Positions 3,101 through 29,259 of a stretch of DNA of 32,000 nucleotides are shown piece after piece; the stretch's first letter is position 1, and every line of letters starts with the position of its first letter. The position numbers were made by a program, and so were the translations under genes. Below the pieces are notes generated by a model, which did not search any database, had not been told where the DNA came from, and saw only the letters and a list, made by a program, of their open reading frames with translations. Source of the stretch: Acaryochloris marina MBIC11017 (lineage in GTDB: Bacteria; Cyanobacteriota; Cyanobacteriia; Thermosynechococcales; Thermosynechococcaceae); assembly GCF_000018105.1 (NCBI RefSeq), contig NC_009925.1, positions 5,880,001 through 5,912,000 of the forward strand, given 5' to 3'.

Positions 3101-4228
3101 ATGACCACAACAACTCCCGAATCCACTCAGACCATGACGGCTAACAAGCGTGGGTTACCCGTCACCATTATCACGGGCTTTTTGGGCAGTGGAAAAACAA
3201 CCCTTTTAAACCACATTCTCTCCAATCAGGAAGGTTTAAGAACGGCTGTTCTGGTCAATGAGTTTGGTGAAATTGGCATTGATAATGATCTCCTGATCAC
3301 CACGGGTGATGACATGGTGGAGCTGAGCAATGGCTGTATCTGCTGCACTATAAATAATGATTTAGTAGATGCGGTTTATAAGGTTCTGGAGCGGTCTGAA
3401 AAGATTGATTATCTGGTGGTGGAAACTACAGGATTAGCCGATCCTTTACCAGTCGCTTTGACCTTCCTAGGCACCGATTTACGAGATGTGACTCGCTTAG
3501 ATTCAATTGTAACGGTGGTCGATTCTGAGAATTTCAGTTTGGATCTGTTCAATAGTGAAGCCGCTCAAAGCCAGATTGCCTATGGCGATATTATCTTGCT
3601 TAACAAAGCTGATCTAGTGGATGAAGCGAATCTGGATCTGCTAGAAGTGCGGGTCCGGGAAATGCGTGAAGGTGCTCGGATCATCAGGACCACTAAAAGC
3701 CAGGTTTCCCTACCGTTGATTTTGAGTGTCGGGCTATTTGAATCCGATAAGTATTTTGATGAGCACGGCCACGGCCACAGCCATGACCATAGCCACGATC
3801 ACGACCATCATGATCACGATCATGGCCACGACCATCACGACCACAGCAATTGCGACCATGACCATGGCCATTGCGAGCATGATCACGACCATCATCACTC
3901 CCATCATTTAGATAACGATGGGTTTACATCCCTCTCTTTTCAAAGCGATCGCCCCTTTTCAGTTCGCAAGTTTCAAAAGTTCTTGGATGAACAGCTTCCC
4001 CTCAACGTCTTCCGAGCCAAAGGGATTCTGTGGTTTGATGAAAGCGAGAAGCGTCATGTCTTTCATTTAAGTGGTAAGCGCTTTTCCTTAGATGATGAGG
4101 ACTGGAGAGGCGAGCCCAAGAATCAGCTGGTGTTAATTGGGCAAGATTTGGATCATGATCAGTTGCGATCGCAAATCGAAAACTGCTTAACCACCAATTC
4201 CACCAATAGCAGCAAAGGATTTGGCTAA
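3101..4228 (+). CDS. COG0523 (CobW/YeiR/ZigA-like) G3E GTPase metallochaperone with a His/Asp-rich insert
   Basis: P-loop GFLGSGKTTLLN, CxCC motif (GCICCT), NKADL. His/Asp tract at 3764-3907. Start set at ATG 3101 (MTTTTPE...); the track start at 2900 would overlap the GT gene by 94 nt. Confidence 0.85.
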   Translation: MTTTTPESTQTMTANKRGLPVTIITGFLGSGKTTLLNHILSNQEGLRTAVLVNEFGEIGIDNDLLITTGDDMVELSNGCICCTINNDLVDAVYKVLERSEKIDYLVVETTGLADPLPVALTFLGTDLRDVTRLDSIVTVVDSENFSLDLFNSEAAQSQIAYGDIILLNKADLVDEANLDLLEVRVREMREGARIIRTTKSQVSLPLILSVGLFESDKYFDEHGHGHSHDHSHDHDHHDHDHGHDHHDHSNCDHDHGHCEHDHDHHHSHHLDNDGFTSLSFQSDRPFSVRKFQKFLDEQLPLNVFRAKGILWFDESEKRHVFHLSGKRFSLDDEDWRGEPKNQLVLIGQDLDHDQLRSQIENCLTTNSTNSSKGFG

Positions 4229-4304
4229 GAAATGATTCTGGCGTTTATGGCTTCAACCCATAAACGCTATACTTGCGAGGTAGATTAATTATCTACCCCA
4301 ATAA

Positions 4305-4377
4305 GGGCATGTAGCTCAGTGGATAGAGCATCAGATTCCGGTTCTGAGGGTCGGGGGTTCGAATCCCTCCATGCTCG
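4305..4377 (+). tRNA. tRNA-Arg, anticodon CCG
   Basis: Hand-folded cloverleaf. Acceptor stem GGGCATG/CATGCTC (one G-T pair), D stem GCTC/GAGC, anticodon stem TCAGA/TCTGA with loop TTCCGGT (CCG at 34-36), T arm GGGGG-TTCGAAT-CCCTC, discriminator G. No encoded CCA. Confidence 0.9.
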
Positions 4378-4411
4378 CTTTTGAAAAAAGCTCGAAATAT
4401 ATACCCTTTCA

Positions 4412-4442
4412 GGGATTCCTAGATTTCAGGAGTCCCTTTTTT
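4412..4442 (+). terminator. Rho-independent terminator downstream of tRNA-Arg
   Basis: 8-bp stem GGGATTCC / GGAGTCCC (one T-G pair), 9-nt loop, followed by TTTTTT at 4437-4442. Confidence 0.55.
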
Positions 4443-4493
4443 AGCTTATAAATAAAGAACATATGTACTATAATTAGGCCTAGTTGGGTATGG

Positions 4494-4546
4494 TTGGGGT
4501 AAAAATTGGGGTAAAAATAAGCCGAGCATAAGAGCTTTTACCCCAA
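4494..4546. repeat. Perfect 12-bp tandem TTGGGGTAAAAA x2 (4494-4505, 4506-4517) plus an inverted 11-bp copy TTTTACCCCAA (4536-4546), just upstream of the integrase start
   Basis: Read directly from the sequence. A partial fourth copy GTTGGGTA lies at 4483-4490. The position suggests integrase arm-type or operator sites. Confidence 0.6.
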
Positions 4547-4556
4547 GTAAGATTTG

Positions 4557-5720
4557 ATGGACACTCAAACGCCTAAAGCTAAAGCCAGCAAGGGTTCCGT
4601 TAAAATCAAAGTTTCGAATAATCGACTGCAGCTTGTCTTTTCTTGCGGTGGCAAGCGACATTACCTCAGTTTGGGCTTATCGGACTCCCAGACCCATCGC
4701 AAACTGGCGGAAATGAAGGTCAGAGCAATTGAGTTGGACATCGTTTCGGACAACTTTGATCAAACCCTTGAGAAGTACAAGCCTCAATTTACCCGAAGCT
4801 CTATTACCCCAATTACCCCAACACCACCCAACCTGCCCAGCCTTGATCATCTGTGGGAACAGTATGTTGAGTTCAAACGCCCTAGCGTATCGCCAAACTA
4901 TCTAGCAAAAGAGCTAGGGACTGCTGAACGGGTGATTAATAACCAATTACCGACGCGATCGCTAGAGGATGCCGTCCAAATTCGAGATTGGGTTGTGGCC
5001 CATAAACCTGCTAATGCGGCCAAGCGCTTAATCACTCAGCTGTCGTCTTGTTGTGACTGGGCCACCAAAAGCAATCTAATTGAGGTCAATCCCTTTAGCG
5101 GTATGGCGAAGGAACTCAAGCTTCCCAAAAATGGGAAAAAGCAACAGATCGATCCCTTTACCCAGCAGGAGCGTAATCAAATCATTCAGGCTTTTACTGC
5201 GAATCAGTATTATGGCCACTACGGTCCCTTTGTCAGCTTCCTATTTAAAACGGGCTGCCGACCGTCCGAAGCCATTGCCTTGCAGTGGAAACATATCGCA
5301 CCTGACTTCCAGCTGATTATTTTTGAGCAGTCAGCCATAGATACGGAATATGGCCTAAAAATGCGCAAGGGTTTAAAAACGCAAGAGCGTCGTCAATTCC
5401 CTTGCAACACTTCCTTACGAGACCTACTGATCACTCACCAACCCTCGGACTGTGAACCTGAACTTCTAGTTTTTCCTAGCCCAGGTGGCAAGCTAATTGA
5501 CTTTCATAATTTTCGAAATCGGGCCTGGAAAACCATTCTGGGAAACCTGAAAGAGATTCGCTACCGTAAGCCTTACCAAACCCGTCATACCTTTATTACC
5601 TTGGCCCTAGAGAATGGTTTGGATGCCAAGGATGTCGCTGGATTAGTGGGTAACTCTCCCGAAATCATTTACAAGCACTATGCCGGAACAAAGCGAGAAC
5701 TTGTGGTGCCTGAATTTTAA
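4557..5720 (+). CDS. int: Tyrosine recombinase / phage-type integrase
   Basis: Catalytic-domain motifs GCRPSEAIAL (Arg), YQTRHTFITLAL (H-x-x-R) and IIYKHYAG (Tyr). Lies immediately downstream of a tRNA gene. Track start 4554 is TTG; ATG is at 4557. Confidence 0.9.
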   Translation: MDTQTPKAKASKGSVKIKVSNNRLQLVFSCGGKRHYLSLGLSDSQTHRKLAEMKVRAIELDIVSDNFDQTLEKYKPQFTRSSITPITPTPPNLPSLDHLWEQYVEFKRPSVSPNYLAKELGTAERVINNQLPTRSLEDAVQIRDWVVAHKPANAAKRLITQLSSCCDWATKSNLIEVNPFSGMAKELKLPKNGKKQQIDPFTQQERNQIIQAFTANQYYGHYGPFVSFLFKTGCRPSEAIALQWKHIAPDFQLIIFEQSAIDTEYGLKMRKGLKTQERRQFPCNTSLRDLLITHQPSDCEPELLVFPSPGGKLIDFHNFRNRAWKTILGNLKEIRYRKPYQTRHTFITLALENGLDAKDVAGLVGNSPEIIYKHYAGTKRELVVPEF

Positions 5721-6019
5721 GGGGAGCGCTTTTTCTTTCTTCGCCTTCGAGGGGGTGGCTGATTGGAGGGCAATGCCCCCAAAAAGTTCTCAATCGCCTG
5801 GTTATGGGTGCCTTTATCCATCCGCGTTGCGGCCCAGTCTTTCATCAGCTCGACGTTATAGCGGACACAGCGGCTTGAATAGCGAACCCAGTGAATCCCC
5901 TCAATCAGTTGATTGGAAAGCCGCAGCTTTTTCAAGCTGGATTCAGAAAGACCGACAATCTTAGCGGCCTCATGCTTGTTGCACCAAACAGCGGGTTGTG
6001 AATTGGCTGGAGATTTCAT
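5717..6019 (-). CDS. Excisionase/AlpA-like helix-turn-helix DNA-binding protein
   Basis: 100 aa. HTH segment NKHEAAKIVGLSESSLKKLR followed by a W-containing wing (GIHWVRY). Its start overlaps the primase stop as ATGA (6016-6019). Confidence 0.6.
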   Translation of the reverse strand: MKSPANSQPAVWCNKHEAAKIVGLSESSLKKLRLSNQLIEGIHWVRYSSRCVRYNVELMKDWAATRMDKGTHNQAIENFLGALPSNQPPPRRRRKKKRSP

Positions 6020-8463
6020 GGTGTTGCCCTCCGAATCAGTCGTACATCCTGGCGCTCATATTCCTTCGTGATCAGCCAAGCTTTACCCTTAACTTCTACC
6101 CATCCAGGCTTTTTACGGGGAAATCCCACCACCTGCACCTGGCGACCCGTAAAATATCCCGTTAATAATTCCACCCAATCGCCTTCCTTTAGATCTGGTG
6201 CAGGAGGACTCACACCAGTTCGCTGATGGTGATGATCAAGAGACACCGACCCTTGCTCTGAGTGGCTTTTCGGGACTTGCTCACCTTGAACAGCAAGTTC
6301 ACGCCCATTAGAATCGCGTGTCTGAGCAATGGGGTGATCAGACGACAAAGATCCGTGATATATCGTTGTTGTAGTCACCTGATCCGAAGAGGTTGATTTA
6401 GGATCATCTGATACCAGCCCTTGCCTAGCTTGGGTTTCAGTCACCTGATCATCTGATTCGGGATACGTGAATATTTTTTTGCGAGATTTGCCACCGCGAC
6501 CATTATTGGCATCAACCTCTCGGATCCCTTCCGTAATATGTCCCTGTCGCCATAGCCGCTTGACCAGTCTGCGCATATGAGATTCACTACAGCTAAACTG
6601 AAGGGCCAATTCAGCAATCTCAAATGCAATGCCTGGAGCGTGCTGGAAATGGTCTAATAATCTCCCCTCAAGACCGCCTTGCCCTTGAGGAGTGCATTTG
6701 AAGTCACCGTGGTAAACAATCACACAATCATCCGGGTCATAGCTGATCACAAACTTGCCAGAACAGCGACTCCGAGATTTATTGATACTCCAGATGCGTT
6801 GGTCTTCCGGCAGGTTATCCTCTGGCTTGGGATGACGGAGGTACCAAACTTCGCTGACATTATCGGGAATGGCCGTGGTCCCTCGACTCTCCCCCAGCTT
6901 GTTTGTGTGATGAAGAATCAAGAATGTACAGCCATAGGTATTGGCGATATTCCGCAAGTCATAAATACAAGCCCCATAGTTGGTATCCTTCTCCGCTAGC
7001 TCACTTGCCCGATTAGCAGCCGTAAAGGAATCGATAATCACGAGAGTGGGTTGTTCTTGCTCAATCCAGCGGGTGAGCTGGGGCAGTTGGGAAAACTGCC
7101 ATTCCGTCTCCACCTGCACCATCCCCGGCTGAAACTGCTCATAATTGGCATCCCGTAATGAATCCGAGAAATCTACATCCGGCTCATCGGTTTGGATAAT
7201 CAGAACCTTGCCCTGAGTGGTCCGAAAACCATTCCAAGATTGGCCAGAAGCCACAGCATAGGCCAAATCATAACTCAGCCGACTTTTGCCTGTGCCTCCA
7301 TCCGCAATCAAGGCAATGGTGCTGGCCTTGGGAATCTTGCCCGCAATAATCCACTCTCGACTTTCAGGAGCACGAGCGAGGAAATCAACAACGTCCATTG
7401 GTGCAAAGGGACGAGCACATTCCAAGCGCGTCTGGTGGATTTTGCGAAGTTGAGCAGTTGAGAGTTCAGCCCGTTTTGCTAACCGATTCAACTCCCACAG
7501 TTGGCGAGCGGTATCTTCAATCTGAAGGATTTCGTCAATCTTTTCCAGACACTGCTCATAGTTGAGCCGGGTATCATGAGTCTTATGATTGGGCCGAGTG
7601 GCCTGTCGTGCAGCAGCCTTAATTTGGCTCAAACTACAATCCGCATTCAGAGCATCGCTGATATCCCATCCCTTAGGAATGGGGGTCTGGTTAAAAGGCA
7701 CTTGAGCAATCTTAGCTCTATGTCCCAACTGCAGGGCCAGCTTTTCAGCCCCCTTTTGTCCTGGTGGATCCAGGTCATAGAAGATCGTGACTGGGCCGGG
7801 TAGGCGTTGCAGCTGCTCAGTTGGCGGAATGACATTACAGCCACAGGTGAAGGTTGAGATCGCAATCTTTGTATCGTCTCGCATCGCCCAACCCAGCAAG
7901 ATCGCATCCCATTCCCCCTCACATAGATAGGTCTGCTTAGCTGCCTTGGGCTTATGGGTAAAGTAGACCATTGCAGGCAGCCCTTTCTGAGACCAGGTAG
8001 GTCTATAACTCCAAGGTTCAATTCTGAACTTTCGATAGTAACGAGTATCTTGATCATCTGCAGGAATAGGAATGACAATTCCGGCTCGACCATGATGAGT
8101 CACTAAACCTAAACGATAGTGTTGAATTAGCTCAGGGGTAATCCCTCGATTTTTCAACCACTGTTGCGCTTGTCCTCGTTTACCGTCATTGCCATTCAGC
8201 AGCCAATCGGTAGTCGTCTGCAGTTGATCAGGGGTATAGATCAACGGTGAATTTTGATTCGCCAAGTCCAAGGATGAGGTTTTCTCTATGCCTAGGCTGT
8301 CGCGGATTTCTTCAGGGGTACAGCCTGCATGACACTTGTACGCTCCACTGTCTAACAGAGCCAAGCTTTTCTGGGATGGACGACGGCCCTTTTTACGACT
8401 GCAGCTAGGACAGTACGCTCGTCCGCTAGCGTTGAAATTGATAAAGTCTTGAATCTCAAACAT
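6016..8463 (-). CDS. Bifunctional DNA primase / RepA-like (AAA_25-type) helicase with a C-terminal wHTH and KOW/SH3-like tail
   Basis: Zn-ribbon CPSCSRKK...YKCHAGC. Toprim acidic motifs YLCEGEWDA and FYDLDPPGQ. Walker A ADGGTGKS, Walker B LVIIDSF, LILHHTNK. Track start 8475 is TTG; ATG at 8463 (MFEIQDF) is preferred. Confidence 0.85.
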   Translation of the reverse strand: MFEIQDFINFNASGRAYCPSCSRKKGRRPSQKSLALLDSGAYKCHAGCTPEEIRDSLGIEKTSSLDLANQNSPLIYTPDQLQTTTDWLLNGNDGKRGQAQQWLKNRGITPELIQHYRLGLVTHHGRAGIVIPIPADDQDTRYYRKFRIEPWSYRPTWSQKGLPAMVYFTHKPKAAKQTYLCEGEWDAILLGWAMRDDTKIAISTFTCGCNVIPPTEQLQRLPGPVTIFYDLDPPGQKGAEKLALQLGHRAKIAQVPFNQTPIPKGWDISDALNADCSLSQIKAAARQATRPNHKTHDTRLNYEQCLEKIDEILQIEDTARQLWELNRLAKRAELSTAQLRKIHQTRLECARPFAPMDVVDFLARAPESREWIIAGKIPKASTIALIADGGTGKSRLSYDLAYAVASGQSWNGFRTTQGKVLIIQTDEPDVDFSDSLRDANYEQFQPGMVQVETEWQFSQLPQLTRWIEQEQPTLVIIDSFTAANRASELAEKDTNYGACIYDLRNIANTYGCTFLILHHTNKLGESRGTTAIPDNVSEVWYLRHPKPEDNLPEDQRIWSINKSRSRCSGKFVISYDPDDCVIVYHGDFKCTPQGQGGLEGRLLDHFQHAPGIAFEIAELALQFSCSESHMRRLVKRLWRQGHITEGIREVDANNGRGGKSRKKIFTYPESDDQVTETQARQGLVSDDPKSTSSDQVTTTTIYHGSLSSDHPIAQTRDSNGRELAVQGEQVPKSHSEQGSVSLDHHHQRTGVSPPAPDLKEGDWVELLTGYFTGRQVQVVGFPRKKPGWVEVKGKAWLITKEYERQDVRLIRRATP

Positions 8464-8608
8464 ATAAATGCCCAACGCAAAACCTATCTGCTAGGCAGTT
8501 CCATGGATAAGACACCTGCAGAAAGCTAATTTCTTTAAACAGTATATATGTACTATTTCAAAAAAGGATATTCATGCAGAATAGTCATATAATTCTTGGC
8601 ATGAGTCA

Positions 8609-9295
8609 GTGGTGGATATCCCCATGCGTAAGGTCTTTAATGCAGATAGTTTTACGGGTCGAATGGCCATCTTGGTGGATGAGTATAAAAATGCCACTCA
8701 TCTCGCCAAAGTGGTCGGCGTGAATGACCGAACGATCCGAAAATGGATGGCGGGAACGGAACCCGCTCGAAACTATCTGGAGCTATTGGCTGAAAAGCTT
8801 GAGGTCAATATCGAATGGCTGGTACTCGGTCGGGGACCTATTCGGCGGGCGGATGGGGGGATTGGTGATGGCACTTATGTCCAAATCCCTCTCTATGATG
8901 TTCGAGCGGGGGCTGGGGAAGGCATGATTGCGGAGGACAAGGAGCAGATCGAGGAACTGATGGCGTTTAGTCGATCCTGGATTCGTAGTGAATTACGTAC
9001 TAGCCCAGCTCATTTGAGTTTGATTCATGTCAGTGGAGATTCGATGGAACCAACTCTGCGACCTGGGGATGTGGTGCTGGTGGATCAGCATCAAGCGGAA
9101 GGGGGGACGGATGGGGTTTATGTGTTGCGTCGGGATGGGCATTTGCAGATTAAACGTCTGCATTGGTTATCAGGGAAAGTTTTGAAGATTATTAGTGATA
9201 ACCCTATCTATCAGCCGATTGAGGTGGATTTATCTCAGTTGACGGAGGAGTTTCAGATTATTGGCCGAGTGATTTGGGGCGGGAAGCGGTTTTGA
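8609..9295 (+). CDS. CI/LexA-type repressor (XRE HTH plus S24 peptidase domain)
   Basis: HTH THLAKVVGVNDRTIRKWMAG. S24 Ser/Lys dyad context GDSMEPTL ... LQIKRL. Divergent from the primase gene. Start is either GTG 8609 or ATG 8624. Confidence 0.85.
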   Translation: MVDIPMRKVFNADSFTGRMAILVDEYKNATHLAKVVGVNDRTIRKWMAGTEPARNYLELLAEKLEVNIEWLVLGRGPIRRADGGIGDGTYVQIPLYDVRAGAGEGMIAEDKEQIEELMAFSRSWIRSELRTSPAHLSLIHVSGDSMEPTLRPGDVVLVDQHQAEGGTDGVYVLRRDGHLQIKRLHWLSGKVLKIISDNPIYQPIEVDLSQLTEEFQIIGRVIWGGKRF

Positions 9296-9453
9296 GCTTT
9301 GGTAATTGATGCAGGGTTTTGATGACTACTCCGCTCTTGAAAATCCAGACACACTGTTTGGTGAACACTTGGAAGCTATAGCCCGCCAACTTTAATGCTC
9401 ATCACCGGATAGCAAAACTAGCTAAAGCGATGGAAATGGCGAATCAGGATAAT

Positions 9454-9927
9454 TCAGCTTCTAGCTAGAAGTTGGTCAATCTGAACGAGCGCTTCTTCCA
9501 ATTGGCTGACGATAGAGCGGGTAATCATCAACCCTCCTTCAACTAGTACGGTGCCATTGAGTGGATGGAGAATTGGTTGTTGTACCCTTTTACCTATCAG
9601 AGCATCGAGATCTTCAATCTCACTGAGATACATACCCGCAGGCAGCTCTACGACAACACCTTCTCCAAGAACTCTGGCTTGGCAGGCCAAGCGAGAATTA
9701 TCCTGGCAATTTGAGAGCAGCTCTAGGGTTTTTAGCTCTCTCTTACTTTTAGGTGACAAGCTCTCCGTACCAGACTGGATATACACATGACAGGTACTAC
9801 AACGCCCCCGACCACCACAACTCCAATTAACATTTAATTCCTGCTGGAGCAACATGGACAGCAAGTTTTCATTGGTTTTGACGGAAACCTCATGATCGAT
9901 GGGCTCCAACTGAATTTGTTTAGGCAT
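9454..9927 (-). CDS. 2Fe-2S ferredoxin-like protein with a ~60-aa C-terminal extension (copy A)
   Basis: Cys pattern C37-x5-C43-x2-C46-x35-C82 (CGGRGRCSTCH ... RLACQ). Paralogous over its full length to 11534-12016. Start set at ATG 9927 (MPKQIQLEPI) by alignment with the paralog; the track start 9999 would overlap the upstream gene. Confidence 0.8.
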   Translation of the reverse strand: MPKQIQLEPIDHEVSVKTNENLLSMLLQQELNVNWSCGGRGRCSTCHVYIQSGTESLSPKSKRELKTLELLSNCQDNSRLACQARVLGEGVVVELPAGMYLSEIEDLDALIGKRVQQPILHPLNGTVLVEGGLMITRSIVSQLEEALVQIDQLLARS

Positions 9928-9979
9928 GATGGATGAACGTGTAGGCGATTTATGCAGACAGGAACGACTTAATCTTGGC

Positions 9980-10996
9980 TTAGCCGAAGAGATTTTCAAC
10001 TAACATGGGGTCGTCAGATTCTTCGTTGCTCATGGTCTCAGAGACAAGGTCATGAAGATTCAAGCTGACTTCACGAGCTTTCTCATACTGGTCAAGCTGA
10101 CCTGCCTCAAAAAAGAGCTTTGCTGCAACATGCAAGTCATCAACGGCACGTTGTTTTTGACCTAACTCAGATGCCATGATCCCTCGTTCAAAATAGGCCT
10201 CCGCATAAGAGGGTTTCAGTTGGATCGCCCTTGAAAAATCGTTCATCACCGTTTCTTGGTCTTCATTGCGTTGCAGGCGTTTTCGAATTACCCCGCGCTG
10301 ATAGAAACTTTCTGCAACGTTTGGCTCGTCAGAAATGGCCTGGGTAAGTGTATCAATTGCACGTAGAGTTTCCAGGAGTTCTTGAACACCCTTCGTTTGG
10401 GCTGCTATGAGTTGGGATTGATTCTGTTGAGTCTCAACTTGATTACTCAGATCCAATGTCGTTGATTGAAGGAGTGCGATTGCATTATGAAGATCTTCCA
10501 TTTTGGAGGACAGGTCGTCGAACTGAGTGACTGCTGAGCGTTGTTGCTCGCTCAACGCAGCTAGCGATGAATGATTTTGATCTTGAAGTTGGTTGAGACT
10601 GCTAATTTCCTCTCCCATTTGTGTAGTACGAGTGGTCAACCCTTGAAGAGCCTCTGAGGCTTGGGTATCTTGCTCATGTAATTCGTCTAACTTCAATTGA
10701 AGTTGTTCATTATTCTGCTGAGCCTCAGACAGCTCATTTCTCATGGAGTCAGTGTTTTGTTGAATCAAAAGGGATACTTCAACCCGCTGTTGTTCCAGCA
10801 TCTTCCCCGTTTGACGACGACGGTTAGCCAAGTTGATGGTCGCAGTCAGCGATAGGGGAATCATAACCATTGCAATTTGCTGTGACACTACAGCAGCAAC
10901 GGTTCCCCCAATGGAGGACACCACAGCTAGAGTTTCCGCAAGATCAAGCCAGTGAGATGTTTTTGTTCTTCCGTTCGTTTCTTTTGGCGACTGCAT
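9980..10996 (-). CDS. Membrane-anchored coiled-coil / TPR-repeat protein
   Basis: N-terminal hydrophobic segments (LAVVSSIGGTVAAVV, MVMIPLSLTATINLA). A ~170-aa Q/E/L-rich heptad region. C-terminal TPR-like repeats (AESFYQRG..., YAEAYFERG...). Confidence 0.65.
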   Translation of the reverse strand: MQSPKETNGRTKTSHWLDLAETLAVVSSIGGTVAAVVSQQIAMVMIPLSLTATINLANRRRQTGKMLEQQRVEVSLLIQQNTDSMRNELSEAQQNNEQLQLKLDELHEQDTQASEALQGLTTRTTQMGEEISSLNQLQDQNHSSLAALSEQQRSAVTQFDDLSSKMEDLHNAIALLQSTTLDLSNQVETQQNQSQLIAAQTKGVQELLETLRAIDTLTQAISDEPNVAESFYQRGVIRKRLQRNEDQETVMNDFSRAIQLKPSYAEAYFERGIMASELGQKQRAVDDLHVAAKLFFEAGQLDQYEKAREVSLNLHDLVSETMSNEESDDPMLVENLFG

Positions 10997-11042: not shown

Positions 11043-11510
11043 TTAGCTTAATAAAGCCTGATTTAGATGAAGTGCTGGCATCATCAAATCTGTTTCTTCA
11101 GCGGAAAGATGCCCTCTTAAAACCTCTGGCATCTCCCTCCAAGTTAATGTAGAGGCCTGTTCATCCTTGACGGCTCGAACAATAGTGCGCTGCCACAGGA
11201 GAAGTCCATCCCTGAGTCGATCCAGGTCATTAAAGAGCATGGCGGTTGCGGCATACCGCAAGGTATTTTTCCGATCCCGACGACAGGTTTCTGAGTAGTC
11301 TTTGGGGCCTTTACAAAACACTTGCGGTTCAATATCCGTTAGTTGAACCTCAGAGTCGTCCATAATGGCGTCTTCAGCATCCCGAATCTTTTCATAGCCA
11401 CTGATGCGCTGGCCAACGTCTTGAAGATAAGACTTTACGCAAGCTAACTCGGCATCAGTGGCATACCGTCCATCGGCCTCAAGGCTAATGCGCTTTAGTT
11501 GTGACAACAT
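11043..11510 (-). CDS. Phycobiliprotein-fold (Pfam Phycobilisome family) protein, copy B; retains a Cys-x-Arg-Asp bilin-site-like signature
   Basis: SLEADGRYATDAEL resembles the phycobiliprotein N-terminal AD-x-GRYL-x3-EL motif. TCRRDRKNTLRYAATAM resembles KCARDIGYYLRMVTY around Cys84. GGGGGAA lies upstream of the ATG. Confidence 0.7.
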   Translation of the reverse strand: MLSQLKRISLEADGRYATDAELACVKSYLQDVGQRISGYEKIRDAEDAIMDDSEVQLTDIEPQVFCKGPKDYSETCRRDRKNTLRYAATAMLFNDLDRLRDGLLLWQRTIVRAVKDEQASTLTWREMPEVLRGHLSAEETDLMMPALHLNQALLS

Positions 11511-11533: not shown

Positions 11534-12016
11534 TTAAACAAGTTTTGAATGGGCTAAATGGGTGACCACATCACTACGAGTCACCTCCAATTGGCTAATC
11601 ATGGAGCGGGTAATTAATTTCCCTTTTTCGACTAAGATGCGACCATCCAGTGGGTGAAGGATGTTTTCGTCTGCTCGTCGGCCGACTAAGCTCTCAATCT
11701 CATTCATATCGCCCAGATACATCCCCGCAGGAACCTCAACCACGACCCCATTGCCCAGAACTCGACATTGGCAAGCTAGTCGAGAAGTTATGGTACTGGT
11801 GGTAATTGCCCCCAGCGTTCGCTGTTCACGACGGCTAATGGGCGACAACTGCTCCATCCCTTCCGTGATGAAGATATGGCAGGTTGCACACATGCCCCGC
11901 CCCCCGCATTCTTGCAGAACTGTCAGCTCATTTTTAAGTAAGGCTGAGAGCACATGATCGTTGGTGGTGACACTGGTTTCTTGACCGAGGGGGTCTAGCC
12001 TAACTATCTTCGCCAT
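11534..12016 (-). CDS. 2Fe-2S ferredoxin-like protein with a ~60-aa C-terminal extension (copy B)
   Basis: CGGRGMCATCH ... RLACQ, with the same C-x5-C-x2-C-x35-C spacing as copy A. Shared extension motif ILHPL-G-x-LVE-G-x-ITRS-x-SQLE. GGAG lies upstream of the ATG. Confidence 0.8.
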   Translation of the reverse strand: MAKIVRLDPLGQETSVTTNDHVLSALLKNELTVLQECGGRGMCATCHIFITEGMEQLSPISRREQRTLGAITTSTITSRLACQCRVLGNGVVVEVPAGMYLGDMNEIESLVGRRADENILHPLDGRILVEKGKLITRSMISQLEVTRSDVVTHLAHSKLV

Positions 12017-12076: not shown

Positions 12077-12754
12077 CTAAGAAGCTACAGTTCCAGGTTG
12101 AGCGGTACACAACCGAGCCAGAATGGTGTCATGGTCTTGTGCTTCCGCTAACCAGGCTTGTGCCACTTTGACTCGTTCCGGCAATCCCAGAATGAAATAG
12201 TTCCATTCAGCCTGCATCGACTCGCAGGATGTTTGCACACCGTCCAACTCTCGACCGGTCAGTTGGCTGAAAAAGGCACTCAGTAGCCCCACTTCAATAA
12301 GGCATGAGGGACGGTCTTGCACATTCCTCGTTTTGGCAAAAGCAGAATATTGGGTCTTAACGACTAAGAACCCCTGTGAATAAGCTCCAAAATCAAAATC
12401 GATAAGGCCCCAACCATAGGTTTTCCAGCACTCCTTGAGGGATTGCAGAAATTCCACCATTTCCATTTCAGCTAGCGTTTTGCCATAGTATTGGCTGACC
12501 TCTGAGGTGAACCGTCGATAAAAATTCTTTCCCCACCAACGACCACATTGCTTTAAGACCACATCAGCAGCAGGTCCCACCTCATGCTCCAGGCTTTGAT
12601 TCAATGCGTTTAAAAACGTCTCAGGGAGGGCGATGAGTCGTGCCCCTTCCCGATTTTCAATTAGGCCTAACTCTGTATCTCCCTGGACATAGTGCTCAGG
12701 GGCAAAATAATTGCCTGGGATATGTTGATTGATTAATTTCTCAGCAGCTAACAT
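12077..12754 (-). CDS. V4R-domain (4-vinyl-reductase-type small-molecule-binding) protein, copy B
   Basis: 225 aa, paralogous to 13635-14351. C-terminal block CLIEVGLLSAFFSQLTGRELDGVQTSCE corresponds to the V4R core, but the distal Cys residues are lost. Confidence 0.6.
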   Translation of the reverse strand: MLAAEKLINQHIPGNYFAPEHYVQGDTELGLIENREGARLIALPETFLNALNQSLEHEVGPAADVVLKQCGRWWGKNFYRRFTSEVSQYYGKTLAEMEMVEFLQSLKECWKTYGWGLIDFDFGAYSQGFLVVKTQYSAFAKTRNVQDRPSCLIEVGLLSAFFSQLTGRELDGVQTSCESMQAEWNYFILGLPERVKVAQAWLAEAQDHDTILARLCTAQPGTVAS

Positions 12755-12773: not shown

Positions 12774-13262
12774 TTATGCCATAACGACTAATTCACGGTT
12801 TTTATCTATGCTCACCAAGTGGGTGTCTATGCGTTGAATAAAGGGCTCTAGCAATACCAGTTGCTCTTCATTCAAGATGGAGCGCAAACATTGTTTGAGA
12901 AATAGACAAATATTGTGGTTAATCGCATTTAGGTCATCCCTCCTCAAAATTTCTGCATAGAACTTAAGCTGATTCTCTAGATAGTCGGGCTGATCCATCA
13001 GCATTGCCATGGCAGCGTATCTGAGCACCGAAATCCAACGAGTCAACATTTGTTCTAAGGTCGCTTGAGGAATGTTGGATGCCTCTTTTTGTAGTTGATG
13101 AGCCACGACTTGGAATATGGTTAACTCCTGATCCCGCAGGGCTTCATAGAGTGTGAGTCGGTCTTGTAAGGCCCCCACCTGTTGCTTAAATTGATTCATT
13201 TCAGTGGGTTGTAGATAATGATCCTCTGCTGTCCGCAGTAGATCTTCAAATTTAGATTGCAT
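12774..13262 (-). CDS. Phycobiliprotein-fold protein, copy A; lacks the bilin-site Cys
   Basis: TAEDHYLQPTEM and VLRYAAMAMLMDQPDYL align with copy B and with the phycobiliprotein helices. Start set at ATG 13262 (MQSKFEDLL), preceded by GAGGG; track start 13274 is TTG. Confidence 0.6.
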   Translation of the reverse strand: MQSKFEDLLRTAEDHYLQPTEMNQFKQQVGALQDRLTLYEALRDQELTIFQVVAHQLQKEASNIPQATLEQMLTRWISVLRYAAMAMLMDQPDYLENQLKFYAEILRRDDLNAINHNICLFLKQCLRSILNEEQLVLLEPFIQRIDTHLVSIDKNRELVVMA

Positions 13263-13299: not shown

Positions 13300-13638
13300 T
13301 TAATTCATCTCCCTCAGCATTTGGAAACAAATTGACTGGGATGGGAGAAACGGTGATGAGGGGTGACCTCCCCAAGCGAAGAATTGAAAGAAATCTGTCA
13401 CGGATAACCGTGTGGAGAACTCCTTTGACCTGGAGTGAACCCGTGATTCCTTAGTAGGCTGCCCAGTCCAGTTCAATTGGCTGAAAAATGTTTGTACAGA
13501 TTGTCGCGGCCAAGATTTTTGAAGGTTGCTAGGGGTGGAGTGGTTAGCAGATCCAGAAACTTGTTGCTGACCTGACCAATTACATGTGCCTAGAAACTGA
13601 CCAACCGTTAAAGATCGCCACGATATAGAGGTACTCAT
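13300..13638 (-). CDS. Hypothetical protein with three tandem ~34-aa repeats
   Basis: Repeats LTVGQFLGTCNWSGQQ / QSVQTFFSQLNWTGQP / LSVTDFFQFFAWGGHP. The ATG overlaps the upstream V4R stop as ATGA (13635-13638), implying translational coupling. Confidence 0.55.
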   Translation of the reverse strand: MSTSISWRSLTVGQFLGTCNWSGQQQVSGSANHSTPSNLQKSWPRQSVQTFFSQLNWTGQPTKESRVHSRSKEFSTRLSVTDFFQFFAWGGHPSSPFLPSQSICFQMLREMN

Positions 13639-14351
13639 GCTAAGTATTCTCCATCCCGCAAACGAGTAGCGATATCCTTGGCATTTGCCCCTTCGTTCTG
13701 CCAGAAGGTAGCCGCGTCAATTCGATTCTTCTTACCCAGTAAGAATTTGCAGTAGGTTTCACCCATGGCATAGCATTGCGTTTCAATGCAACTCAACTTC
13801 TTTTGAGTGAGTTGACTAAAGAACCCTGCAAATAACCCCGCATAAATATGGCAAACAGGCTTGCCGACATCTCCAAGGGTGCGAGCCACAGCAGAATCAA
13901 AGATATTGATGAACATGAAGCCATTGGTTTGGTCTTCAAGATCCACTTCCCAATTCCCCCATCCTTGACTTGTAAAGGGCCACCACCATGCTTCTAATGC
14001 AAGGGAGGGACGTGCCATTCTTACAGGTTTTTGAAATTGCTGTTCAAACCAGCCCTGAAAAAAGGCCGCATCTTGCTTACCCCATTCATGGCCGATGTTA
14101 TACATCACCACAGAGGAAGCCGATCCCACTTCCTGTTCTAAGCCATTGATCAGCGCAACAATGAAGTCTTCACTGGCCAAGATATTGCGTGAGTCATGCC
14201 AGTCCTCAATCGTGCCGTCAGAGCGATTGAAGGTAAAGAAATCCTCAAAGCGATAGTGATTGAGCTTCTGAGGGAATAATTCTTTAGAAGAATATTGTTT
14301 TTGAATGCAGTTTGAGGGCGCACTACTCAATTCTGCTGGTGCAAGAACCAT
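13635..14351 (-). CDS. V4R-domain protein, copy A
   Basis: 238 aa. C-terminal V4R-like core VCHIYAGLFAGFFSQLTQKKLSCIETQCYAMGETYCKFLLG, with the Cys pattern typical of V4R/BchJ-type domains. First gene of the operon. Confidence 0.65.
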   Translation of the reverse strand: MVLAPAELSSAPSNCIQKQYSSKELFPQKLNHYRFEDFFTFNRSDGTIEDWHDSRNILASEDFIVALINGLEQEVGSASSVVMYNIGHEWGKQDAAFFQGWFEQQFQKPVRMARPSLALEAWWWPFTSQGWGNWEVDLEDQTNGFMFINIFDSAVARTLGDVGKPVCHIYAGLFAGFFSQLTQKKLSCIETQCYAMGETYCKFLLGKKNRIDAATFWQNEGANAKDIATRLRDGEYLA

Positions 14352-15939: not shown

Positions 15940-17600
15940 AGGGCCCTTGAGAAGTGCAAGGAAAATCATTCAAAATATTTAAAACCCTTGCACCTGCAAC
16001 CCGATGTATCGCCGTCCATCCCCCGGTCAACTGTCCTTTGAGAACTTCTACTTGCCCTTTGGAGGGAAACTTTCAGGAGAGAATCGCTGGGTCAAACTAG
16101 CCGAGTTGATTCCTTGGGAGAGCTTTGAGTCAGAATATGCAGACCAATTCAGTCAGACCATGGGGGCACCTGCCAAACCCTTTCGTGTGGCCTTAGGGAC
16201 CTTAATCATCAAAGAGAAACTGGGTATATCCGACGCAGAGACCGTAGAACAGATTCGAGAGAACCCCTACTTGCAGTACTTTCTGGGGTTTAGTGAATAT
16301 CGAGAGAGTGCTCCGTTTGATGCCTCCATGCTGGTTCACTTTCGCCAACGGTTGAATCTAGAGCTGCTAGCTCAAGTCAATGACGCAGTCGTGGACTCTG
16401 TGCTGGCATCCGAGGGGTCTCCTGTGGCGATGTCCCCTGAGTCATCTCCTCCCTCTGACGATGATGAAGATGAGCCTCCTGCCCCTCCCAACCAGGGCCA
16501 ATTGTTGATAGATGCGACCTGTGCACCAGCCGATATTCGCTATCCGACAGACTTGGATTTGCTCAATGATGCCCGCAAAGCAAGCGAAGCCATCCTCGAT
16601 GCTTTATATGCTCAAGTCATGCTGTCCCTCAAGTGCAAACCTCGCACCTACCGCCAGAAGGCCCGCAAAGCCTATCTGGCCATTGCCAAAAAACGTCAAC
16701 CGAGCCGCAAGCTGATTCGTAAAGGGATTCGTCAGCAGTTGGGCTATGTGCGTCGCAATCTAGCCCATATTGATGGGTTGATAACATTGGGGGCTTCCCT
16801 ATCCCAATTGTCCCGGCGGCAGTACCGTCTGTTGCTGGTGATTCATGAAGTCTTTCGACAGCAAGAATGGATGTATCAACAGTCAGTACGTCGAGTGGAC
16901 GACCGGATTGTCAGTATGAGTCAGCCTCATGTCCGACCGATGGTCCGAGGCAAAGCTGGAACACCCGTTGAGTTTGGAGCCAAGCTATCCCTCAGTTGTG
17001 TGCGTGGATGTGTGTTTCTGGAGCGCTTGAGTTGGGATGCGTTCAATGAATCCCAGCATCTTCAACATCAAGTGGAAGCCTTTCGTCGTCGCTTTGGCCA
17101 TTATCCTTTCTCAGTCCATGCTGACCAAATCTATCGGACTCGGGCTAATCGACGATGGTGTAAAGCTCGGGGGATTCGCTTGAGTGGACCGCCGTTAGGA
17201 AGACCTCAACAAGACCCACAAGTACAGACCCAACTCAAGCAACAAGCGTGTGAGGATGAAAAGGTGAGGGTCCAGATTGAGGGTAAGTTTGGGCAGGCCA
17301 AGCGACGGTTTGGCTTGAATCGAGTGATGGCGAAGTTAGCGGATACGGCTGCCAGTGCGATTGCTATCACGTTCTTGGTCATGAATCTGGAGCGGTGGCT
17401 CAGCCACTTTTTATCGTTCATTTTTGGGGTGGGATTGCTGGTTTTGGAAAGCGTTATGGAGCTGTCAGGACTTCCTTGGGGCTTTGCTAGGGCCAGTCAA
17501 AGGATATGGCTCTGGCCGTCACAAATGGGTTGCTTGTACGATTTGATGCATGGAATTTGCTCAATTTACTTTCTCAGCAAACCCTAATAAAAGGGTTAAC
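15940..17600 (+). mobile_element. IS5/IS1182-group insertion sequence (boundaries approximate)
   Basis: Single long DDE-type transposase ORF. Tentative imperfect terminal repeats are GGGCCCTTGAGAAGTGCAA (about 15940) and the reverse complement of TTTACTTTCTCAGCAAACCC (about 17575-17595). The ends are not resolved and no target duplication was identified. Confidence 0.45.
16004..17587 (+). CDS. IS5/IS1182-family transposase
   Basis: 527 aa. The N-terminus SFENFYLPFGGKLSGENRWVKLAELIPWE is typical of the InsH-N (DUF772) transposase domain. The rest is a basic-rich DDE region. Confidence 0.8.
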   Translation: MYRRPSPGQLSFENFYLPFGGKLSGENRWVKLAELIPWESFESEYADQFSQTMGAPAKPFRVALGTLIIKEKLGISDAETVEQIRENPYLQYFLGFSEYRESAPFDASMLVHFRQRLNLELLAQVNDAVVDSVLASEGSPVAMSPESSPPSDDDEDEPPAPPNQGQLLIDATCAPADIRYPTDLDLLNDARKASEAILDALYAQVMLSLKCKPRTYRQKARKAYLAIAKKRQPSRKLIRKGIRQQLGYVRRNLAHIDGLITLGASLSQLSRRQYRLLLVIHEVFRQQEWMYQQSVRRVDDRIVSMSQPHVRPMVRGKAGTPVEFGAKLSLSCVRGCVFLERLSWDAFNESQHLQHQVEAFRRRFGHYPFSVHADQIYRTRANRRWCKARGIRLSGPPLGRPQQDPQVQTQLKQQACEDEKVRVQIEGKFGQAKRRFGLNRVMAKLADTAASAIAITFLVMNLERWLSHFLSFIFGVGLLVLESVMELSGLPWGFARASQRIWLWPSQMGCLYDLMHGICSIYFLSKP

Positions 17601-23305: not shown

Positions 23306-24248
23306 TAGCACTACGAAATCGTGTTAGTACTATTGAATAGAAGATACGTCTAAATCAGTATGCCAGCACCCTATAGTTACGACCTTCGCTGCAAAGCCCT
23401 TGCAGCGGTCAAGAATGGTGAACGAAAAGTTGACGTGTGCCGGATGTTCAATATCAGTCGTAACACGTTGCATCTATGGATAGTCCGTGAGGAATCCACA
23501 GGCGACTGCCAGGCGATTACCAACTATCAACAAGGAGCTCGCCACAAGATCACAGATTGGGACCGTTTTCGTGAGTTTGCCCAAGAGCATGGCGGGAAGA
23601 CCCAGGCCCAAATGGCCAAACTATGGGGAGATAATGTCACCCAGCAAAATATCAGTGATGCCTTGAGAAAGCTGGGATTGAGTCGAAAAAAAAGACCTAT
23701 GGCTATCGAGAACGGGATGAAACACAACGCCAAGAGTTTATAGAGCGACTAAAGACTAAACATGCCCATCAGATCGTCTATGTAGATGAAGCGGGTATCG
23801 ATAATCGAGCGGACTATCCCTATGGATACGGCCCCATTGGCCAACGATTCTATGACCTCAAATCAGGCAAGCGGACAGAGCGAGTCAGTTTCATTGCTGC
23901 GCTTAAAGAAGGTCAGTTATTTTCTCCCATGACCTTTGAAGGGTCTTGCAATTGGTTGTTATTCGAAGCGTGGTTACAGCAGAGTCTTATACCCCAGTTG
24001 CAACCGGGCGATATCATCGTGATTGATAATGCCAGTTTTCATCATGGTCTGAGTATTGAAGAAATCGTAGCTGAAGCAGGCTGTGAGATTTGGTATCTAC
24101 CGAGCTATTCTCCAGATCTCAATAAAATCGAGCGATGGTGGTTTGTGCTCAAAAACTGGATGAAGCAACGGTGGGATGAATTTGACACTTTCCGTGATTG
24201 TGTGGATGCTGCTTTTAAAGAGTGTACTAACGTGCTCCCGTAATGCTA
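23306..24248 (+). mobile_element. IS630/Tc1-mariner-family insertion sequence, copy 1
   Basis: Imperfect terminal inverted repeats TAGCACTACG...GTTAGTAC (23306-23330) and its counterpart ending at 24248, 19 of 25 positions matching. Flanking TA dinucleotides at 23304-23305 and 24249-24250. Sits in an intergenic position. Confidence 0.8.
23360..24243 (+). CDS. IS630-family transposase, two frames joined by a -1 frameshift at the A8 run 23686-23693
   Basis: ORF1 is the HTH part (23360-23743). Hand translation of the -1 frame is open from the A-run through VYVDEAG, VIDNASFH and YSPDLNKIERWW (the DDE triad) to 24243. Confidence 0.8.
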
Positions 24249-28178: not shown

Positions 28179-29259
28179 AGCAGATGAACAAAATTAATTA
28201 CATAGAATTTCCTGGTTGTAAACTACCTGAGTCCTCTGTTTACATCCATTGATTTGATGTTATTAGTCCGTCCTATCTCCACCGAAAGCTTACGCTTATT
28301 GCATCGGATTTATCACAGTAGTCGCCATCATCAGGTCAGACAACGCGCCCATTGCCTCATTTTGTTCGCCCAGGGTTGGCCCCCCTACACCTTAGCCTCC
28401 CTTTTTAGTGTGAGTCCTAAAACGGTTTACAACTGGCTTAAGGCTTGGAACAACCGAGGATTTGCAGGACTCTATAATCACCCAGGTCGAGGTCGAAAAC
28501 CGATGTTTAATCCCGACCAACAACAGCAGATTTATGAGTGGACTCAGGCATCTCCCATCCAACTCAATCAGGTGTTAGCTCAGATTGAACAACAGTGGTC
28601 AGTACGCGTGTCAAAGGCCACAGTTAAACGCGTCTTGAAGCAGATGGACATGAGCTGGCATCGCTTTCGCCAAGGGACATCAGGCCAGCCTTTATATGCC
28701 CACTACCTCGAAAAAAACAGCAGTTAGAACATCTCAAGGAACAGGAAGAGAAGGGAGACATCCATCTATTCTTTATGGATGAGAGTGGTTTTTCGTTAGT
28801 CCCCTGTATTCCCTATGGATGGCAACCCATAGGGACGTATCTGGAAATACCGACTCGTTCAAGTAAACGCTTGAATGTTCTGGGGTTTTTGAGTCGACGA
28901 CAAGGGCTACATGCTTATACATCAGAACAGACCATCACCAGTGAGGTTGTCAGTCATTGCATTGATACCTTTTTTGCTGACGTGGAGTTGCCCACCGTCA
29001 TTGTGGTGGATCAAGCCCCTATCCATACGAGCCAATCAATCTATGAGATGAAAGCAGAGTGGGCCGAACGGGGAATTACCTTGTTTGAGTTGCCAAGCTA
29101 TTCTCCCCATCTAAATTTGATTGAGCGTCTGTGGCAATTCATGAAATATCAGTGGATTGAAATGAGTGCCTACTGGGGGTGGTCATCTTTGGTCGAATAT
29201 GTGGAAAGAGTTTTGAAAGCCTACGGCGATGATTATGTAATTAATTTTAGCTAGGTGCT
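28179..29259 (+). mobile_element. IS630-family insertion sequence, copy 2 (unrelated in sequence to copy 1)
   Basis: Terminal inverted repeats AGCA...AAAATTAATTACATA, 20 of 26 positions matching. TA target-site duplication at 28177-28178 and 29260-29261. Confidence 0.85.
28257..29254 (+). CDS. IS630-family transposase, -1 frameshift at the A7 run 28711-28717
   Basis: ORF1 is the HTH part (to 28727). The -1 frame reads KKQQLEHLKEQEEKGDIHLFFMDESGF..., with VVDQAPIH and YSPHLNLIERLW (DDE). Confidence 0.8.

Follow-up and report, generated by a model that had tools for sequence, protein, structure and literature searches.

Acaryochloris marina MBIC11017 carries, in the 32,000-nucleotide stretch analysed here (contig NC_009925.1, positions 5,880,001 to 5,912,000; hereafter the window), two neighbouring genes related to phycobiliproteins, which we call copy A and copy B. 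The locus raises the question of whether only one of the two encoded proteins keeps a chromophore site, and what such an unequal pair would do outside a light-harvesting antenna. The answer we prefer, with moderate confidence, is that copy B is a non-antenna protein of the Slr0149 type, a cyanobacterial bilin biosynthesis-associated globin (BBAG) in an operon of the slr0144-slr0151 (pap) kind, and that copy B would carry a bilin beside a pigment-free copy A, within a tetrapyrrole or redox module.

The gene for copy B (11043-11510, minus strand) encodes 155 amino acids. The protein matched PF00502 in Pfam with 48.5 bits against a cut-off of 22.2 and, from this match, its AlphaFold2 model and Foldseek searches, was classified as a Slr0149-type BBAG with an alpha-subunit-like phycobiliprotein fold. 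Codon 76 is TGT (11285-11283, minus strand), so that the cysteine named in the original prediction was confirmed from the sequence, in the context D-Y-S-E-T-C76-R77-R78-D79-R-K-N-T-L-R-Y-A-A-T-A-M. The interval 11238-11285 corresponds exactly to C76 to M91, and residues C76-R77-R78-D79 (11274-11285, minus strand) form the Cys-x-Arg-Asp (CXRD) signature of a bilin site at the start of helix E, as judged from the sequence and alignments. The pattern itself is not rare. Translating the window in six frames gave 8 occurrences where about 4.4 were expected, and the meaning of the pattern at this site therefore rests on the homologous column only. A phmmer search of PDB sequences placed T-C-R-R-D-x4-L-R-Y of copy B on A-C-L-R-D-x4-L-R-Y of phycocyanin beta, and C76, R78 and D79 on the bilin-binding Cys, Arg and Asp of allophycocyanin alpha (tCLRD, lCqRD). 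A profile of 115 sequences of the copy B family gave the same Cys/Arg/Asp pairing in PDB sequences at an E value of about 1e-10. The proposal that Cys76 occupies the canonical bilin attachment column was thus borne out by both alignments.

The signature of copy B is inherited, not new. A contig of 303,490 bp from A. marina encodes a protein 99% identical to copy B, and the chromosomal A. marina homolog (6.5-Mb contig) was 74% identical. Two additional cysteines, Cys24 (in a column that is otherwise nearly invariant Phe) and Cys66, were found only in copy B and its 99% relative and were absent from other orthologs.

The structure models agreed with this placement. The AlphaFold2 model of copy B had a mean pLDDT (predicted local distance difference test) of 95.8 and a pTM (predicted template modelling score) of 0.89, with helices at residues 2-12, 19-44, 46-60, 73-93, 96-113, 117-132 and 137-154. 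Cys76 falls in the N-terminal end of the fourth of these (73-93), which we equate with phycobiliprotein helix E. Sequence and profile alignments, taken with these predicted helix boundaries, thus put Cys76 in the helix E region rather than outside it, as the original prediction required. In Foldseek searches of the PDB, copy B matched alpha and beta chains of allophycocyanin along its whole length, with template modelling (TM) scores of 0.82-0.88 and 17-24% identity, the best structural matches being allophycocyanin alpha chains. The model of copy A was poorer (pLDDT 87.7); its full-length Foldseek matches were allophycocyanin and phycocyanin chains with TM scores of 0.65-0.71. Both models have seven or eight helices, with a globin-like core and an N-terminal helical hairpin. 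The two genes are accordingly phycobiliprotein-fold paralogs, as had been proposed.

Copy A (12774-13262, minus strand) encodes 162 amino acids from an ATG start. PF00502, hhalign, AlphaFold2 and Foldseek identified it as a Slr0146-type protein with a beta-subunit-like phycobiliprotein fold. Its own PF00502 score of 22.1 bits falls just under the cut-off of 22.2, and most members of its family carry precomputed PF00502 matches. The families of copies A and B were aligned by hhalign over 156 columns, their full length, with a probability of 99.6%. In this alignment C76, R78, D79 and R80 of copy B are paired with M72, T74, R75 and W76 of copy A. At the equivalent site copy A reads E-Q-M-L-T-R-W-I-S-V-L-R-Y-A-A-M-A-M, without the Cys and without Arg-Asp, and the sequence and the hhalign columns agree on this point with the original prediction. 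The same positions are nevertheless far from random across the family. Slr0146-type proteins have a conserved helix E motif of their own, [A/S]-L-K-H-W, in which Lys takes the column of the Arg and His that of the Asp, and Trp101 is nearly invariant among them. With this motif, the family of copy A is no degenerate copy. The CXRD signature was absent from all 65 copy A orthologs; in four of them (C-L-C-H-W; Snowella and related Merismopediaceae-type genomes) the Cys column does hold a Cys.

The window copy A has the position of a Slr0146-type gene, after the gene for the small protein and before that for the second V4R protein, and full-length similarity to the family, but lacks both the helix E motif and Trp101. 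It reads M72-L-T74-R75-W76 at the motif and K-F-Y instead of E-W-L in the region of residues 99-103. Among copy A orthologs from the genome loci, 86% have His on the column of R75. A protein 81% identical to copy A (P0121) has kept the family His and has not kept Trp101. As a separate observation, the conserved His-Trp of the Slr0146-type family might form a different ligand site; no discussion of such a site was found in the literature consulted for the cluster.

The two families differ in their affinities within the phycobiliproteins. Beta subunits were the best matches of the copy A family profile, and alpha subunits were among the best matches of copy B in Foldseek and profile searches. 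A beta-like copy A and an alpha-like copy B fit an alpha/beta-like pair, and the two families occurred together in 65 of 80 loci from different species. The suggestion of a heterodimer with a single chromophore was therefore upheld as to the asymmetry, the co-occurrence and the alpha/beta likeness, and the dimer and its bilin are proposed from these. Copies A and B would, we infer, form a heterodimer.

Conservation of the site was assessed in 197 distinct Slr0149-type sequences, comprising database homologs and genome loci. Residue 76 was Cys in 113 of them (57%), Trp in 53 (27%), Tyr in 14, Ala in 8, Phe in 5, Ser in 3 and Thr in a single sequence; the K-W-R-V-D proteins of Microcoleus are an example of the Trp type. 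Asp79 was kept in 196 of the 197, and Arg78 in 116 of 120 database homologs and in most orthologs from genome loci. Trp106 was found throughout the Cys-, Trp-, Tyr-, Phe- and Ala-type sequences, which make up 193 of the 197. All eight sequences with Ala76 have a Cys four residues further on (A-Q-R-D-C). No consistent compensating Cys, of the sort known from ApcE-like attachment, was found in the Trp-type orthologs, only about 30% of which have a Cys at position 120 or 144. Fitch parsimony on a neighbour-joining tree gave Cys as the root state of position 76, with at least 16 changes between Cys and other residues; the tree, built with position 76 masked, is rough and the count of changes approximate. 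Cys76 was kept in all Acaryochloris paralogs examined. An exhaustive search of 1.84 billion representatives showed the copy B family to be small, with 458 clusters at E values up to 0.001. Distant representatives in this search kept Arg-Asp and had Gly, Ala or other residues on the Cys column. The same search recovered two long proteins, P0371 (835 aa) and P0373 (973 aa), in which the copy B profile matched 7-8 stretches and Pfam found only PF00502; they appear to consist of tandem phycobiliprotein-like domains having Arg-Asp without Cys (R-A-A-R-D, K-V-S-R-D).

Gene order places copy B in a cluster that has been described before. Both copies belong to a tightly packed operon of eight minus-strand genes, all with intact reading frames, in the order V4R protein, small protein, copy A, V4R protein, 2Fe-2S ferredoxin, copy B, TPR protein and second ferredoxin. 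A scan of one genome per species yielded 254 relatives, and 80 loci were kept. The order V4R, small protein, copy A, V4R, Fer2, copy B, TPR was found in about 50 of these 80 loci, in different cyanobacterial species; in the Oscillatoriales loci the two halves of the cluster are inverted relative to each other. Synechocystis PCC 6803 has the same gene order and domain set in its slr0144-slr0151 (pap) cluster. In Synechocystis salina (locus L060) the slr0144-slr0152 arrangement is complete, with genes for a plant-type ferredoxin and a Ser/Thr kinase as well. With this complete cluster, and with the Slr0149 ortholog of S. salina at the same gene position and 41% identical to the window copy B, copy B is orthologous with the Synechocystis cluster. 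The S. salina ortholog reads E-I-C-R-R-D, sharing C-R-R-D with copy B, and the Slr0146 ortholog of this species has L-L-H-W. The window cluster differs from the Synechocystis pap operon in lacking the plant-type ferredoxin (Fed4; 7482-7817 of the S. salina locus) and the kinase (8883-10847 there) and in having a second Fed5-like ferredoxin after the TPR gene, mobile elements at its flanks, and an Arg in copy A where the family has His.

The neighbourhood of copy B, with an Fe-S protein and a pair of V4R proteins, is also the gene content reported for BBAGs, where the pair comprises one V4R protein of each type. In heterotrophs, pre-PcyA reductases are encoded beside a heme oxygenase, two V4R proteins, an Fe-S protein and either one or two BBAGs, phycobiliprotein paralogs among which the Slr0149-type proteins were named cyanobacterial BBAGs (Rockwell, Martin and Lagarias 2023, PMC10151467). 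According to the same study, some cyanobacteria retain the cluster without the reductase and oxygenase (slr0144-slr0149), the slr0144-slr0151-type cluster descends from the one that brought PcyA into cyanobacteria, and BBAGs form a clade apart from phycobiliproteins, with the cyanobacterial clade descending from heterotroph BBAGs. CXRD was noted there in some cyanobacterial BBAGs, and the cyanobacterial cluster proteins were described as non-essential and of unknown function; the supplementary text consulted mentions neither slr0146, slr0149 nor CXRD. Bilin binding was shown for BBAG-1, BBAG-2 and BBAG-3. BBAG-1 and BBAG-3, which have CXRD, took up several bilins in Escherichia coli without lyases, and their bilin signals after acid denaturation were reported by the authors as adducts (PMC10151467). 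Like copy B, BBAG-1 (POZ53552) and BBAG-3 (MBL9008307) are CXRD phycobiliprotein paralogs encoded beside two V4R proteins and an Fe-S protein. Unlike the window, the clusters of these two contain genes for a heme oxygenase and a pre-PcyA reductase, and their bilin binding has been demonstrated. Two further reports bear on the cluster in Synechocystis. It has been described as containing "allophycocyanin beta-like" and "allophycocyanin alpha-like" genes, with slr0148 encoding a dispensable adrenodoxin-like Fed5 (Cassier-Chauvat and Chauvat 2014, PMC4284462), and interactions among Slr0144-Slr0149 were confirmed by affinity purification and mass spectrometry of Slr0149-GFP (Xu et al. 2021, PMC9880817).

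Our preferred reading starts from what is shown above, the fold, the homology, the position of the motif, the synteny and the pattern of conservation, and adds bilin binding, its covalent link, the heterodimer and a role as proposals. Copy B would bind a bilin, of which phycocyanobilin is the obvious one in the host. The pyrrole nitrogens and a propionate would be bound by Asp79 and Arg78, and a thioether would join ring A to Cys76 with no dedicated lyase involved; covalent binding at Cys76 is plausible on these grounds. Copy A, belonging to the Slr0146 type, would have lost the site and would serve as the pigment-free partner in the alpha/beta-like pair. The pair, the two V4R proteins and the Fed5-type ferredoxin may jointly constitute a tetrapyrrole-handling or redox-linked module connected with the assembly or repair of photosystems, which would be neither a light harvester nor a photoreceptor. 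A light-responsive complex, as the original prediction had envisaged, found no backing, because the BBAG holoproteins tested were photoinactive, with fluorescence yields of a few per cent (PMC10151467). The redox connection also envisaged in the original prediction is plausible, given the Fe-S and V4R partners and the likeness, well below cut-off, of the V4R domains to that of the regulator MsvR.

A bolder version of this reading, which we regard as unlikely, would confine the bilin to the alpha-like subunit of an alpha/beta-like heterodimer. This heterodimer, the V4R proteins and Fed5 would make up a relic module for bilin handling, or for redox signalling that depends on a bilin, and would inform photosystem biogenesis of the tetrapyrrole or redox state. 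Replacements of Cys by Trp or Tyr would then be switches between covalent and non-covalent binding, the Lys-His-Trp of the partner would be a second ligand site, and the Acaryochloris plasmid copies would be specialised for chlorophyll d photosystems.

The remaining genes of the operon, all on the minus strand, were assigned as follows. The first encodes a V4R-domain protein of 238 amino acids (13635-14351; Pfam V4R 91.3 bits), of the Slr0144 type and in first position in about 50 loci. The next encodes a small protein of 112 amino acids (13300-13638), its start overlapping the upstream stop by 4 nt. This protein had no family match in Pfam or NCBIfam, and it was assigned to the Slr0145 position from weak but consistent phmmer matches at the same position in most loci. 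A second V4R-domain protein (12077-12754; 225 aa, 32.6 bits) is of the Slr0147 type and conserved in position. Both V4R proteins had a weak NCBIfam match to the C-terminal domain of MsvR, with 27.6 bits for the second (12077-12754) and 42.6 bits for the first (13635-14351) against a cut-off of 220, and the MsvR-like domain of the first contains four cysteines. MsvR is a redox-sensing regulator of methanogens. Directly upstream of copy B lies a 2Fe-2S ferredoxin with a C-terminal extension (11534-12016; 160 aa, Pfam Fer2 38.7 bits), of the Slr0148/Fed5 type; by visual comparison, S. salina has a relative of the same length and gene position. Copy B is followed by a Slr0151-type protein of 338 amino acids with a coiled coil and TPRs (9980-10996), found at the same position in most loci. 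Its matches to TPR_11 and TPR_17 were above the Pfam cut-offs, its top match, TPR_9 at 33.6 bits, was just under the 35-bit cut-off, and it shares a C-terminal NLFG ending with the S. salina ortholog. The last gene encodes a second Fed5-like 2Fe-2S ferredoxin (9454-9999; 181 aa, Fer2 45.3 bits), which by eye is clearly like the 160-aa ferredoxin. This gene and the end of the TPR gene share 20 nt; in other genomes the place is empty or taken by different genes, and a counterpart is annotated in plasmid pREC3. No heme oxygenase, bilin reductase or bilin lyase gene was found among the window genes and flanks.

The operon sits in mobile DNA (4554-9295, 16004-17587, 23360-24243 and 28254-29254). 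Its flanks contain a tyrosine integrase, an 819-aa AAA_25 protein, a LexA/S24-like repressor, a DDE transposase and IS630-type fragments. The window DNA was 99.5% identical to part of pREC3, a conjugative plasmid of A. marina MBIC10699 (303 kb), and the window cluster was taken to be a plasmid-borne paralog of the slr0144-slr0151 operon; a near-identical sequence was already present in RefSeq. The window operon is uninterrupted, whereas its pREC3 counterpart carries IS21 and IS110 elements after copy B and ahead of the TPR gene (3527-5633 of locus L081).

Several variant clusters were met in the locus scan (L007 6380-7471, L047 7001-8142 and L014 6209-7474). Two loci have a tandem copy B, one of these lacking copy A, the second V4R gene and the ferredoxin, and one locus has only a V4R gene beside copy B. 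An Oscillatoriales-type cluster with inverted halves and K-W-R-L-D was found on a 209-kb contig (JBLNEP010000227.1, locus L064) in a bin labelled Actinomycetota, which is probably a binning error rather than a transfer. The second V4R open reading frame is far longer in two Thermosynechococcaceae-like genomes (about 2.5 kb at L068 3936-6419 and about 1.3 kb at L005 5139-6464), which suggests a fusion or an insertion.

Several observations weigh against our preferred reading. In 43% of orthologs position 76 holds Trp, Tyr, Phe or Ala instead of Cys, and these replacements, with the at least 16 changes on the tree, indicate that a covalent bond is not essential to the function of the family. Copy B also lacks four residues just before helix E, where the aligned phycocyanin beta has an Arg-Arg pair, and its pocket may therefore differ from those of phycobiliproteins. 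The window copy A has lost the near-invariant family His (H to R) and Trp101, and these losses, in a cluster that sits among mobile elements, suggest that the window copy may be under relaxed constraint. BBAG-1 was poorly chromophorylated (PMC10151467), and no report of bilin binding by any cyanobacterial BBAG was found in the literature of the cluster.

The Cys/Trp polymorphism makes non-covalent binding the most serious rival. The pocket would be kept and a tetrapyrrole held non-covalently by Asp and Arg, Cys76 being a neutral ancestral residue or a redox-active thiol. The near-invariance of Asp79 (196 of 197), set against Cys in only 113 of 197 sequences, indicates a strongly constrained pocket with an optional covalent bond, and the distant representatives that keep Arg-Asp with Gly, Ala or another residue on the Cys column fit the same picture. 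The Cys found one helical turn later in the Ala76 sequences suggests positional flexibility and favours this explanation as well. Far-red allophycocyanin alpha paralogs that lack the canonical Cys hold phycocyanobilin non-covalently and are still antenna components, and the Trp, Tyr and Phe variants of Slr0149-type proteins are possibly analogous to them. However, the acid-denaturation signals of BBAG-1 and BBAG-3 were reported as adducts (PMC10151467), Cys is placed at the root of the family by parsimony, and every Acaryochloris paralog examined has retained it. We therefore consider an incidental role of Cys76 doubtful, though a real contender. That copy B is instead a genuine, light-harvesting allophycocyanin alpha (ApcA) is suggested by database names such as 'allophycocyanin subunit alpha ApcA', by allophycocyanin alpha chains being its best structural matches, and by the CXRD site. 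Copy B shares with allophycocyanin alpha and beta and phycocyanin beta the N-terminal helical hairpin, the Cys-x-Arg-Asp at helix E and L-R-Y. It departs from light-harvesting phycobiliproteins in its 17-24% identity to solved allophycocyanins, the four-residue deletion, and scores that fall well short of what the ApcA and ApcB equivalogs require (27 bits for the NCBIfam ApcA equivalog NF058521, the cut-off being 270). Its partner subunit lacks a bilin site, and its genomic context is different: the window contains no apcB, apcC, linker or lyase gene, the neighbours being V4R, Fer2, TPR and mobile-element genes, with the V4R and ferredoxin synteny conserved. The Acaryochloris genes annotated "apcA", which occur in up to four copies, have been re-assigned as slr0149 homologs in slr0144-0152-like clusters, with the argument that the apcA assignment is erroneous (Partensky et al. 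2018, PMC6002478), and BBAGs were placed in a separate clade (PMC10151467). On the NCBIfam score, the genomic context and the literature, ApcA identity was rejected as highly improbable.

The plasmid copy could also be a redundant, decaying duplicate, the asymmetry seen in the window being in part a product of relaxed selection. Copy A has R75 where 86% of its family has His, and K-F-Y in place of a region with a near-invariant Trp101; its 81%-identical relative keeps the His. The integrase, transposases and LexA-like repressor at the flanks, the IS21 and IS110 elements that split copy B from the TPR gene in pREC3, and the existence of a chromosomal A. marina copy (74% identical) point the same way. 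Against this stand the eight intact and tightly spaced reading frames, the retention in copy B of every invariant family position, and the absence of CXRD from copy A, which is a trait of the whole Slr0146 family. Decay is possible for the window copy A, but it does not explain the family-wide asymmetry, and as an account of the locus it seems to us quite improbable.

The gene cluster and the motif have already been published (PMC10151467, PMC6002478, PMC4284462). The observation in the original prediction was right and its reasoning sound, for a feature known from that published cluster. Added here are the conservation of Cys76, the motif of the copy A family, and the beta-like nature of copy A as against the alpha-like copy B. 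The analysis also has corrective value: several database names call copy B an ApcA, which it is not. The much lower conservation of Cys76 than of Asp79 bears on how a C76A control would be read. The bilin-binding test has been done for non-cyanobacterial BBAGs, with none found reported for Slr0149-type proteins. The slr0144-slr0151 cluster has been variously linked to photosystem I, photosystem II assembly and photosystem II repair, and these links conflict (Rast et al. 2016, PMC4853703). A bilin on the cyanobacterial members, if true, would connect the evolution of the PcyA cluster to a physiological role.

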